Source: Promethearchaeota archaeon
Lineage (GTDB): Archaea > Asgardarchaeota > Lokiarchaeia > Sigyniarchaeales > SOKP01
DNA: 64,000 nt
Direction: 5' to 3'
NCBI GenBank assembly: GCA_030599585.1
Contig: JAUVNS010000001.1
Span: 96,001 to 160,000, forward strand
Shown: positions 1-23,977 of the stretch, one piece after another
Numbering within the stretch: the first letter of the stretch is position 1
Layout of the letters: every line of letters begins with the position of its first letter
Made by a program: the position numbers and the translations under genes
Notes under the pieces: model-generated
Told to the model about the DNA's origin: nothing
What the model saw: the letters and a program-made list of their open reading frames with translations, nothing else
Databases searched by the model: none

Positions 1-186
1 GAGACCTATATGCAAATGTATTTAACAACCTCATATGTTTTAACCGCCCCAGAAAAGACAAGTCAAGATGTAGTAAAGATTTTCAACGATCATGGAATGT
101 TTGCTGCTGTAATTGGAAGGATAAGGAATGAACAAGAATTAAATATTACTGACGGTCAAGATACAATTAAAGTTATAGAATTTTAA
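1..186 (+). CDS. 3' end of an AIR synthase (PurM-like) related protein, partial at window edge
   Basis: Open frame 1-186, ETYMQMYLTTSYVLTAPE...FNDHGMFAAVIGRI...IEF*; resembles the AIRS C-terminal domain. Confidence 0.55.
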   Translation, partial: ETYMQMYLTTSYVLTAPEKTSQDVVKIFNDHGMFAAVIGRIRNEQELNITDGQDTIKVIEF

Positions 187-274
187 TCTTCTAAGGTTTA
201 ATCTAATCGATAAGAAGTAAGCTATGAGAAACACCATTTATCCCACATCTAACGATAATTTTAGTTATTAGCCT

Positions 275-5237: not shown

Positions 5238-6650
5238 ATGTCAGAACAGAAAAATAGTATTATTAAATCAATAGTTTTAAGTTTATTTGACGACGATGGA
5301 CCCACCCCTAAGATTTACTGGCCTACAGCAATGGACGAATCGTCACGCTTGCTAATAGCGATGAAAACGATTTCGCTATTAATGGGGGATTCTGTGTATC
5401 AAAATGGAACTTCGTCAGATAGTGTTAATTATTTCGGCATATTACCTTTTCCAGATTTAAAATTGAACGGGTTGACATATTTCTTCTTAATTCTTGATCC
5501 GACGGCCAGAGGCAACGCTAAGGCAGCTACTATTACCGTTCTAATAAATGAAGACGATAGGGTTTTTTTCTACGAAAATATGAAGTATTTAAGAGTCATA
5601 ATAGATAAATCTGCGTCAAGAGTTCAATTAGCTAAAACGATGGAAGAAAACCAAACAATTATGGATGATTTAAAAGAAGAATTATTCAATTTTACTAGCG
5701 AGATAAAGGATCCCTTCCTAAATTTGAGACAAATCAAAATTCTTATGACAGGATTGGATCGAGCGGGAAAAACAAGTTTCTTGCATGCCGTTAAGCAAAG
5801 ATATAGTGAAATTATCAAAACTTTACCAACTAAGGGAGTCGCACGAAGCGAAGAAAAGATATTCGAAGAACAAAATTCTAAGATATCGCTTTGGGATTTA
5901 GGGGGGCAAAAGAAGTACAGAGATAAATTTATTGAACAAAGAAAAGTTTACCTCTACAACGTTGATCTACTTTATTATTTTATAGATATTCAAGATTCAG
6001 AAAGGATTTCGGAAGCAATTGAATTGTTTGAAACCGTCATCAATTCTCTTATCGAATTGGAAGAATTTCCCCCAATTGTTGTATGCCTCAATAAATTTGA
6101 TCCCGATATTAAAAATGCGAAGGAAATTAAAAAAAATATTAAAACTGTAAATGAAAACATTCATTTAATCTCTGAAAGGTTTTTTGTGAAGATTTTCCAG
6201 ACTTCTATCTTTGATCATTGGTCGTTAGTCTCAGCTTATTCCTACGGTTTATCGCAATTAAGCCCTAATAGGGAACTGTTTCAAAATCAATTAAAGCATT
6301 TTGCGAAGAAAATAAATTCCGATGCAATACTATTGCTCAACGAAAATGGAATTATCCTTTCAAATTTCTCTAAGCCTGGCATTTCTGAAAGGGTTTTTGA
6401 AATTTCTGCCCCTCACTTCCAAACATTGTATAAAACATTTAAGGAATTTAAAATACTTAAACAAGATTTTTTAATTTCATCTGGAATAACTTCTGAATCA
6501 AAGAAAATAATATTTAAAAGGATTCCTGTTGAGAAATATAACCTTTACCTACTTTTGTTCTTGGAAAAAGAGCTAAATATTGATAAAATAGATAAAAATT
6601 TACCTAAATTATCTAAAAACTTGAATGATTTAATCCAGACTTACATATAA
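5238..6650 (+). CDS. FLCN/SMCR8-like longin (uDENN) domain + Rag-like GTPase + roadblock-like domain fusion
   Basis: N-term FDDDGPTP and FFLILDPTARG; G1 GLDRAGKT, WDLGGQ, NKFD, TSIFD; C-term QLSPNRELFQNQLKHFAKKINSDAILL. Confidence 0.85.
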   Translation: MSEQKNSIIKSIVLSLFDDDGPTPKIYWPTAMDESSRLLIAMKTISLLMGDSVYQNGTSSDSVNYFGILPFPDLKLNGLTYFFLILDPTARGNAKAATITVLINEDDRVFFYENMKYLRVIIDKSASRVQLAKTMEENQTIMDDLKEELFNFTSEIKDPFLNLRQIKILMTGLDRAGKTSFLHAVKQRYSEIIKTLPTKGVARSEEKIFEEQNSKISLWDLGGQKKYRDKFIEQRKVYLYNVDLLYYFIDIQDSERISEAIELFETVINSLIELEEFPPIVVCLNKFDPDIKNAKEIKKNIKTVNENIHLISERFFVKIFQTSIFDHWSLVSAYSYGLSQLSPNRELFQNQLKHFAKKINSDAILLLNENGIILSNFSKPGISERVFEISAPHFQTLYKTFKEFKILKQDFLISSGITSESKKIIFKRIPVEKYNLYLLLFLEKELNIDKIDKNLPKLSKNLNDLIQTYI

Positions 6651-22343: not shown

Positions 22344-23393
22344 ATGAAGAAGCTAATTGATGCTGTAATATATACAGATGTTCACGATGAACTCGGTCCG
22401 AATCCCATTCTTTGGCTACCGCCAAATTTACCTGAATCTGTCAGAATGTTAGTAGGAATTAAAACTGTAACATTACTTACAGGTGACCAAGGGTCTGTAC
22501 CAGATTCGCTATTAATAATCCCTTTTCCTTCACTTAAATTAAAAGGATTAATTAGATATATAGAAAGAGAAGATGAAAGTAAAAGAGGAGGATTCGCAAG
22601 AAGTGCAATAACATTCTTGTTTAAAGAAACAGATGATGTGATTTTCTATAAATATATGGGTTATCTTAAAGCTCCCTTCGATGAAACTTCGAGAAAAATA
22701 ATTGAATTAGAGAACAACCATGCAGAAAGTTCAAAAATCTTTGAAGAGATTAAAATTTTACGAGATAGCGTCAGTGAATTACTAGATGATTTTAGAACTA
22801 AAGAAATAACTTCACCAGCATCAAAAGAATTTCCAGAAAAACGAGTTAAAGATGATAAAGTAGTAGATTATAGACTTAAACTCGTAATAGTTGGAGATCC
22901 TGGAGTAGGTAAGACATCTACCATACTAAGATTTACTGATAACGCGTTCTTAAGAACATATGTTCCAACACTTGGGGTATCCATTACTGAAAAATTATTT
23001 GATACCAAAAGCGGAGTAATAGAAACGATCTTATGGGACATCGCAGGACAAGCAAAATTTGAGACGATGAGAAGACATTTCTACCAAGGCTCTGAGGCGA
23101 TATTACTTATTTTTGATCTAACTAATAGAAATTCCTTTACAAGTATAAAATCGTGGTATCATGACGTTATGAAAAACATGGAGAAACATCACCACAAAAT
23201 GTCGGGTTATATTTTTGGAAATAAAAGTGATTTAATCGAACTACGAAAAGTTAAATTAGTTGAAGCTTTAGCTTTAGCTAAGGAATTGAATTTAAAATAC
23301 ATAGAAATATCTGCCCTAACTGGTAAAAATGTCGAATACGCTTTTTATGATATTGCCAACACAGTCGTAAAAATGCGTTTGAACAAACCTTAA
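22344..23393 (+). CDS. FLCN/SMCR8-like longin domain fused to Rab-like GTPase
   Basis: HDELGPNPILWLP, EDESKRGG; GDPGVGKT, YVPTLG, WDIAGQ, GNKSD, EISA. Confidence 0.85.
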   Translation: MKKLIDAVIYTDVHDELGPNPILWLPPNLPESVRMLVGIKTVTLLTGDQGSVPDSLLIIPFPSLKLKGLIRYIEREDESKRGGFARSAITFLFKETDDVIFYKYMGYLKAPFDETSRKIIELENNHAESSKIFEEIKILRDSVSELLDDFRTKEITSPASKEFPEKRVKDDKVVDYRLKLVIVGDPGVGKTSTILRFTDNAFLRTYVPTLGVSITEKLFDTKSGVIETILWDIAGQAKFETMRRHFYQGSEAILLIFDLTNRNSFTSIKSWYHDVMKNMEKHHHKMSGYIFGNKSDLIELRKVKLVEALALAKELNLKYIEISALTGKNVEYAFYDIANTVVKMRLNKP

Positions 23394-23404: not shown

Positions 23405-23977
23405 ATGGATTTAGAAGAAGCAATAAATAAACGTAGAACAATTAGGAGATTTACTCAAGAAACTATTCCGAGCGAAATCTTAAAAAAATTAATCGATTAC
23501 GCTCGAATCGCTCCTGCTGGAAATAATATTCAATGCGTTGAATATGTAATCGTAGAATCTCCAGAAATGAGAGAAAAAATGTTTCCTTTAGTAAGATGGG
23601 CCGCATCGCTACCTAAAGAATTAAGAACTCCAGAAAGTGGTAGGGAACCAACAGCATATATAATCGTGCTAGTAAATACAAACATTAAAAAATCATATTA
23701 CGATTTTGACGTTGGAGCCGCAGTTGAGAACATATTACTCGGTGCTGTGACGTTTGGAATTGGAACGTGTTGGATGGGTTCAATAAAAGGAGATAAAATA
23801 AGAGTATTACTTGACATTCCTGATTTTTACGAAATTAAACATGTGATTAGTCTAGGGTACCCTGACGAGACATCTGTGATTGAACCGTATAAAGAGTCTT
23901 TTAAATATTGGAAAGAAGGAAACGAAATGCACATCCCAAAACGAAAGTTGGAAAGCCTTATTTTAAAGGTGGTATAA
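23405..23977 (+). CDS. nitroreductase family protein
   Basis: AINKRRTIRRF, APAGNNIQ, GIGTCWMG, LGYP. Confidence 0.9.
   Translation: MDLEEAINKRRTIRRFTQETIPSEILKKLIDYARIAPAGNNIQCVEYVIVESPEMREKMFPLVRWAASLPKELRTPESGREPTAYIIVLVNTNIKKSYYDFDVGAAVENILLGAVTFGIGTCWMGSIKGDKIRVLLDIPDFYEIKHVISLGYPDETSVIEPYKESFKYWKEGNEMHIPKRKLESLILKVV

Follow-up and report, generated by a model that had tools for sequence, protein, structure and literature searches.

Eukaryotic longin-domain GTPase-activating proteins (GAPs), i.e. folliculin (FLCN), GATOR1 and C9orf72-SMCR8, are disease-linked regulators of the lysosomal Rag and Arf GTPases. Here we describe a gene from a Lokiarchaeial genome that encodes a longin domain and a small GTPase as one protein. 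It is the open reading frame (ORF) that begins at position 22344 (ORF 22344) of a 64,000-nucleotide stretch of DNA, hereafter the window, corresponding to positions 96,001 to 160,000 of contig JAUVNS010000001.1 in the Promethearchaeota archaeon assembly GCA_030599585.1. On the evidence of its sequence, ORF 22344 appears to be a two-domain signalling protein of Lokiarchaeia, in which a GAP-type longin domain is joined through a linker of ~20 residues to a Rab-like GTPase that is predicted to be catalytically complete.

The longin domain of ORF 22344 resembles those of the eukaryotic GAP longins (FLCN with FNIP, NPRL2 with NPRL3 in GATOR1, and SMCR8 with C9orf72) in its predicted fold, in a Gly-Pro (GP) motif at the start of strand b2 and in a conserved candidate arginine on what is predicted to be the neighbouring hairpin loop, and some of its relatives weakly match the Pfam Folliculin family. 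It differs from them in being a bare longin of 156 residues, with no DENN or other C-terminal GAP-complex module, and in being covalently joined to a GTPase that is Rab-like rather than Rag or Arf. The monomeric DENN GAPs Avl9 and DENND6A offer a further comparison, as the predicted catalytic arginine of DENN GAPs is placed between longin strands b4 and b5 (bioRxiv 10.64898/2026.01.05.697756), i.e. in the same loop as Arg81 of ORF 22344; these proteins, however, possess full DENN domains, act on Arf/Arl substrates and are separate from those substrates.

Two lines of published work bear directly on this gene. A 2025 article in Traffic (PMC12290439) describes the GP motif as lying before b2, beside the arginine finger, in FLCN, NPRL2, SMCR8 and C9orf72, and as absent from FNIP2, NPRL3, adaptins, TRAPP and DENND proteins; it also reports Asgard longins with both GP and an arginine, for which homology to the eukaryotic GAP longins is proposed. 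The article mentions no GTPase fusion and leaves the partner GTPase family as a question. The longin of ORF 22344 has the same two motifs in what is predicted to be the same structural arrangement, but its partner GTPase is on the same polypeptide and, across the family, is most often Rab-like. The second line concerns architecture. PMC4917890, citing Klinger 2016, records fusions to Arf-like GTPases for five Loki longins, and Tran et al. 2024 (PMC10933270) catalogued LG and LGR small GTPases in Ca. Prometheoarchaeum syntrophicum MK-D1, of which WP_147663426.1 is labelled 'LG' within the MK-D1 Rab clade of their Supplementary Fig. 5, with LG/LGR proteins also in the Rag/Arf-like group. The MK-D1 and Lokiarchaeum fusions have the same architecture as ORF 22344; in neither article, however, is the longin classed as GAP-type or are GP and Arg mentioned, and PMC10933270 concludes of these GTPases only that GAPs may be needed.

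The closest solved relative is PDB entry 8yqg, the longin of a Lokiarchaeota Roadblock-Longin protein. It is a member of the same Asgard longin family as the domain of ORF 22344 (profile E 1.7e-14 to 9.4e-24), possesses the GP motif and is called dimeric in the title of the entry, but lies behind a roadblock domain and not ahead of a GTPase. Our literature search found no paper describing 8yqg, nothing usable on LokiRagO or LokiRagM, and no paper joining longin-GTPase fusions with GP/Arg GAP-type longins. Both halves of the present observation are thus already published, the LG architectures in PMC10933270 and the GP/Arg Asgard longins in PMC12290439, and it is their union that is new as far as we have found.

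Results

Sequence and predicted structure of the longin domain

A first-pass annotation of the window had proposed that the N-terminal ~160 residues of ORF 22344 are shared with a second gene, ORF 5238, and the comparison bears this out. BLASTP of the two N-terminal domains alone gives 34% identity over 157 residues with E 2e-25 (4e-27 for the full-length proteins), in an alignment that sets G18-P19 on G21-P22 and R81 on R91. All of the motifs quoted in the annotation are present, i.e. ELGPNPILWLP, KTVTLLTGD, PFPSLKLKGL, DESKRGG (the arginine of which is residue 81) and DDVIFYKYM in ORF 22344, with KTISLLMGD, PFPDLKLNGL and DRVFFYENM as counterparts in ORF 5238. The latter is Gtr1/RagA-like (Pfam Gtr1_RagA 7e-27) with a roadblock-like C-terminal region, and over its whole length gives a weak match to Pfam Folliculin that falls under the cut-off (0.0046, 17.2 bits). 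No Pfam family matched the N-terminal domain of ORF 22344 at E <=1, and no DENN domain was found by Pfam in this ORF, where the longin instead precedes a Ras-family GTPase. Folliculin (PF11704) did, however, match 6 of 30 N-terminal domains from the family, at best with 1.3e-6, and one database protein (P0215) exceeds the cut-off for this entry (2.7e-5, 24.5 bits against 23.3). The ESM Atlas adds a weak indication, in the form of an Asgard cluster in which 19% of members carry NPR2 (score 0.88).

A model of residues 1-160, predicted by AlphaFold2 (AF2) from an input alignment of 136 family members, has longin topology (predicted local distance difference test score 95.5, predicted template modelling score 0.90), with elements b1 7-14, b2 18-25, a1 31-46, b3 57-61, b4 66-76, b5 84-94, a2 95-124 and a3 129-156. 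Its closest fold match is 8yqg (Z 18.9, root-mean-square deviation 2.0, 144 residues aligned). Ranks 2-18 of the VIA comparison (17 rows) are occupied entirely by longin subunits of GAP complexes at Z 10.0-14.7, namely K. lactis Lst4 (14.3-14.7) and chains of FLCN-FNIP2 (12.0-13.1), C9orf72-SMCR8 (10.2-12.7), GATOR1 (10.0-12.2) and SEA (10.6-10.9). The first non-GAP longin in the ranking is that of DENND1A at 9.8 (DENND1A/B 9.6-9.8), and the longins of BLOC-3, sedlin, TRAPP, Mon1-Ccz1, Ykt6 and Sec22 score <=9.3; Foldseek gives a ranking in agreement, with E from 2.6e-5 to 3e-2 for the GAP-complex set. Other longins trail by only a small margin in Z, yet the order is consistent, ranks 2-18 all falling to one functional family, and the modelled fold of the N-terminal domain is accordingly that of a longin, closest to the longins of FLCN/FNIP, NPRL2/3 and SMCR8/C9orf72.

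The register of these alignments also places the two motifs. Residues 4..160 of the model align to 6..169 of those GATOR1 chains that we take to be NPRL2, and R81 falls within ~5 residues of Arg78, presumably the catalytic arginine in NPRL2 numbering. Residues 1..160 align to 21..200-202 of the C9orf72 chains with G18 at about residue 38, which agrees with the position of the C9orf72 GP motif in PMC12290439. As modelled, ORF 22344 combines both published marks of a GAP longin, the GP motif and an arginine in the b4-b5 loop, and the topology of the sheet (strand order 2-1-5-4-3) suggests that the b1-b2 and b4-b5 loops are neighbours at the same end of it.

The Rab-like GTPase

The C-terminal half of ORF 22344 is a Ras-family domain (Pfam PF00071, 152.4 bits against a cut-off of 21.6), and the annotation was right to call it Rab-type with intact motifs. 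The 60 best PDB relatives of this G domain are nearly all Rab proteins or the yeast orthologues Ypt1/Sec4, headed by Rab1a (4.4e-33) and then Rab8A, Rab26, Rab43 and Rab10, and a Thorarchaeota Rab is also among the PDB matches (6.8e-30). G1 (GDPGVGKTS), T208 of switch I, G3 (WDIAGQ), G4 (NKSD) and G5 (SAL) are all intact, and the residues of these motifs are nearly invariant across the 120 closer homologues introduced below. No C-terminal cysteine for prenylation is present in the protein, which ends in VVKMRLNKP; this matches published reports on Asgard Rab-like proteins. The ORF list contains no ORF of >=60 residues overlapping the gene. Coordinates of the domains and motifs are collected in Table 1.

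Table 1. Positions in the window of ORF 22344, its domains and motifs, and the related longin domain of ORF 5238.
Feature	Position	Strand	Basis
Whole longin - linker - Rab-like GTPase gene	22344..23393	+	349 residues + stop; ORF list; architecture common to 120 homologues
N-terminal longin domain, residues 1-156	22344..22811	+	AF2 model; fold matches
GP motif, G18-P19, at start of b2	22395..22400	+	Conservation; PMC12290439
R81-G82-G83, b4-b5 hairpin loop, candidate arginine finger	22584..22592	+	Conservation; AF2 model
Linker, residues 157-176 (conserved F163-P164 at 22830-22835)	22812..22871	+	Conservation
Rab-like small GTPase domain, residues 177-342	22872..23369	+	Pfam Ras 1e-44; PDB matches
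P-loop	22893-22919	+	GTPase motif
DIAGQ	23037-23051	+	GTPase motif
NKSD	23220-23231	+	GTPase motif
SAL	23310-23318	+	GTPase motif
Longin domain of Rag-like longin-GTPase-roadblock gene (ORF 5238-6650)	5238..5729	+	BLASTP E 2e-25

Conservation of GP, Arg81 and the linker

An exhaustive HMMER search over 1.8 billion cluster representatives yielded a longin family of 146 clusters at 50% identity, and a word-indexed search for closer proteins returned 120, almost all of 344-358 residues and with Ras-family domains, whose source labels are Lokiarchaeota or Promethearchaeota with a few Hod-, Odin- or Hermodarchaeota. Among the 50%-identity representatives G18 is found in 119/134 (89%), P19 in 116/135 (86%), R81 in 112/128 (87.5%) and G82 in 106/127; in the closer homologues GP is present in 119 of 119, R81 in 119 of 120 (the remaining protein, P0070, having lysine) and G82 in all 120. 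The arginine, whose conservation across the family the annotation had named as a point to check, is therefore retained at both levels of divergence.

GP and Arg occur together in 93 representatives and are both missing from 16, with Arg only in six and GP only in three; the Fisher p of 2.6e-12 for this association ignores relatedness and is not readable as a probability. A tree that unites all the double losses in one clade is rejected (p 0.005, approximately unbiased (AU) test), so that GP and Arg have been lost together at least twice independently.

The linker is variable outside F163-P164. Within the longin-Rab representatives that have both GP and Arg, F163 is found in 44 of 49 and P164 in 41 of 49 (117/120 among the close homologues), and in the class that lacks both motifs the counts are 5/14 and 6/14, respectively, uncorrected for relatedness. 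This pattern is a hint of a linker that docks and does more than tether, with F163-P164 as a possible docking motif.

Partners, distribution and history of the family

The annotation had also called for a survey of fusions across Asgard archaea, which reveals at least two GTPase classes and several non-GTPase partners. Representatives were classified by how their C-terminal regions compared with the GTPase domains of ORF 22344 and ORF 5238: ~80 combine the longin with a Rab-like domain and ~9 with a Rag-like domain, the latter usually with roadblock, so that the Rab-like class appears, by sequence comparison, to be the majority architecture of longin-GTPase fusions. Five representatives have a ~113-residue N-terminal extension resembling 8yqg, one of 518 residues (P0220) joins the longin to a TrmB winged helix-turn-helix domain (TrmB 1e-12), another of 525 residues (P0137) is longin-Rab-TIR (TIR_2 7e-19), and several more carry other C-termini. 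A separate database protein of 1996 residues (P0216), a repeat protein without a match to the family hidden Markov model (HMM), contains 17 separate stretches matching query residues 70-122 (b4-b5-a2).

Matches to the family are present in 233 of 400 genomes of the phylum, in 132 of the 134 genomes from the host's own family and, at the levels of order and class, in every genome sampled. In five genomes of other Asgard classes, longins with GP and the Arg-Gly pair are found in ORFs of 152-173 residues, in mid-sized proteins and in giant ORFs, and within the stretches examined of these five genomes no GTPase lies on the same ORF as the longin. This distribution, which includes longins in other classes that lack a GTPase on the same ORF, indicates an old module, spread broadly among Asgard archaea, with the GTPase fusions mainly a feature of this class. 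In one genome of another Asgard class (G071) such longin matches lie within giant frames of 2985-10069 residues (for example at C10:124942-125376, C35:22108 and C8:38615), and in a further genome (G117) three adjacent longin genes, all with the GP and Arg motifs, occupy 639-642 kb of contig C1.

In a tree of the longin domain, built by quick IQ-TREE from 108 rows and 150 columns, the Rag-fused longins fall in one clade (Shimodaira-Hasegawa-like approximate likelihood ratio test 98), nested in a well-supported 27-row group together with roadblock-longin and longin-TrmB proteins and seven Rab-fused sequences; the remaining 81 rows are nearly all Rab-fused. Holding all of the Rab-fused longins together gives a tree 48.7 log-likelihood units worse that is nevertheless not rejected (p-AU 0.09). 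As the Rag fusions are one clade and a single Rab clade is not rejected, there may have been a single origin for each GTPase fusion. A history of repeated exchange between Rab and Rag partners was considered and set aside, as the tree does not require it. The annotation's picture of a portable cassette shuffled onto different GTPase classes consequently holds in its first half, and what the sequences safely show is a single longin family joined to five or more kinds of partner; 'shuffled', in contrast, draws little from this tree.

Copies in the host genome and neighbouring genes

The host genome contains five family members, all of them fused to a GTPase. In addition to ORF 22344 (Rab-type) and ORF 5238 (Rag-type, with GP and Arg), these are a paralogue with GP and Arg that is 47% identical to ORF 22344 (L002, contig C20 84.2-85.2 kb, 33 kb upstream on the opposite strand), a third Rab-type copy on contig C34 (149.0-150.1 kb) from which GP and Arg have both been lost, and a second Rag-type gene, immediately upstream of the window, that keeps GP and lacks Arg. 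Four of the five genes (L002, L009 at 93.6-95.1 kb, ORF 5238 and ORF 22344) lie within 35 kb of contig C20 (84-119 kb, comprising window positions 1-23400 and the 12 kb before them).

Orthologue loci were compared in six genomes (L011-L016, from G201, G194, G222, G205, G183 and G260). The orthologues of ORF 22344 and of its Arg-containing paralogue are adjacent and in the same direction, ~160 nucleotides apart in the sister genus and ~1.6 kb apart in G260, which is of the same genus, indicating that the two genes arose by tandem duplication. Clear orthologues of the Rab-type copy without Arg are found only within the host genus, at identities from 88% down to 43%. The idea that this copy, which lacks GP as well, is an ancient non-catalytic partner comparable to FNIP was dropped, given that its orthologues are genus-confined and fast-diverging and that the forms without GP and Arg are not one clade.

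Downstream of ORF 22344, a nitroreductase-family gene (23405-23977, + strand, PF00881 8.5e-23) begins 11 nucleotides past the stop codon and may be co-transcribed; upstream and divergent are an 88-residue ORF without a family match and a PfkB kinase gene. The kinase and the nitroreductase provide no functional context for ORF 22344, and a sigma-70 promoter and terminator scan at the locus was uninformative, the host being an archaeon.

Discussion

From the GP motif and the modelled position of Arg81, the reading that we consider most probable, with roughly an even chance, is that Arg81 serves the Rab-like domain fused to it as an arginine finger, whether within one chain or across a dimer of longins. 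Under such a mechanism the longin domain would dimerise, with itself or with a paralogue, as 8yqg does, and would present Arg81 from the b4-b5 loop, beside the GP motif, to the nucleotide pocket of the Rab-like domain in its own chain or in the partner chain of the dimer. The capacity for GTP hydrolysis would on this view be intrinsic to the protein, with docking of the domains, and not a separate GAP, as the gate. Copies without GP and Arg, of which the paralogue on contig C34 is one, would have remained GTPases but given up the catalytic face. The fuller proposal, that the longin-Rab fusion forms a self-contained GAP-GTPase unit in which a folliculin-type finger serves a Rab-type switch within the chain or between dimer partners, we hold tentatively, as a possibility that is more doubtful than the role of Arg81 itself.

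Several observations weigh against a catalytic role for Arg81. Although 8yqg is the closest solved relative and has the GP motif, it has no arginine at the position of R81, and lysine replaces the arginine in some orthologues (in genomes G201 and G222, and in P0070). Two alignments of the N-terminal domain, used as profiles against PDB sequences, returned only 8yqg and coiled-coil noise, and no residue-level match to NPRL2 R78 or to what we take to be the other eukaryotic reference arginines, FLCN R164 and SMCR8 R147. On well-supported branches of the longin tree there are two independent contrasts between GP and Arg, a number at which a sign test is without power. With Gln236, the G domain possesses a glutamine of its own and may need no help to hydrolyse GTP. 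As regards substrates, the longin GAPs in the in-vitro tests considered here act on Arf GTPases, with Rag substrates cited, and SMCR8-C9orf72 was reported in one such study to be inactive towards Rab1a and Rab7.

Some of these points would also be accommodated if the longin were a non-catalytic platform for dimerisation, localisation or partner binding, or were GEF-like (i.e. a guanine nucleotide exchange factor) in the manner of TRAPP, Mon1-Ccz1, DENN and Ragulator, the Arg-Gly pair being structural or ligand-binding. Most longin/roadblock platforms are GEFs or scaffolds (PMC10933270), 8yqg is a stable dimer despite the missing arginine, the lysine substitutions point the same way, and copies that have lost GP and Arg retain a fully intact GTPase; the gap in Z between GAP longins (>=10.0) and the DENND1 GEF longin (9.8) is, moreover, small. 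We nevertheless regard a non-catalytic or GEF-like longin as rather unlikely, as the combination of GP with a b4-b5 arginine is reported as a signature of GAP-type and not of GEF-type longins, and the two motifs are under strong purifying selection (119/120) and tend to vanish together.

A different possibility retains GAP activity but directs it elsewhere, the longin being a true GAP for a separate, free-standing small GTPase whilst the fused Rab-like domain targets or gates it, as in a GAP cascade. Candidate substrates would be plentiful, with 58 Ras-family matches in the host genome, most of them in ORFs of 175-230 residues; the known eukaryotic longin GAPs all act in trans, and where the longin is found with TrmB or roadblock partners, in giant proteins or in the short ORFs of other classes, any substrate must be separate. 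Set against this are the fusion of all five host copies to a GTPase and the conservation of Phe-Pro in the linker, which tracks that of GP and Arg and suggests a defined intramolecular arrangement, and on balance we consider action in trans improbable. That the N-terminal resemblance should reflect chance or composition, or that ORF 22344 should not be a real gene, is scarcely credible: beyond the AT-rich genome and the low-complexity helical tail of the domain we found no support for it, and it is refuted by the E value of the N-terminal domain, by the 146 clusters, by the conserved length and motifs of the 120 homologues and by the near-universal occurrence in genomes of the host's family.

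Returning to Arg81 as a finger for the fused Rab-like domain, the annotation had drawn a parallel with the specialisation of FLCN for Rag and of SMCR8 for Arf/Rab GTPases, which is an analogy. The gene structures found in Lokiarchaeia answer the partner question left in PMC12290439: the GTPase is mostly Rab-like and, in a separate clade, Rag-like. In ORF 22344 the arginine-finger hypothesis could be tested by one point mutation in a single, soluble chain of 349 residues, a simple model for the origin of eukaryotic GTPase regulation. If the proposed mechanism is true, ORF 22344 would be the first longin GAP with a Rab-like GTPase as its target. Such fusions might then preserve the original coupling of longin GAP and GTPase as it was before the eukaryotic split into separate subunits (FLCN-Rag, GATOR1-Rag, SMCR8-Arf), and longin GAP activity would predate eukaryotes and would originally not have been restricted to Rag and Arf substrates.

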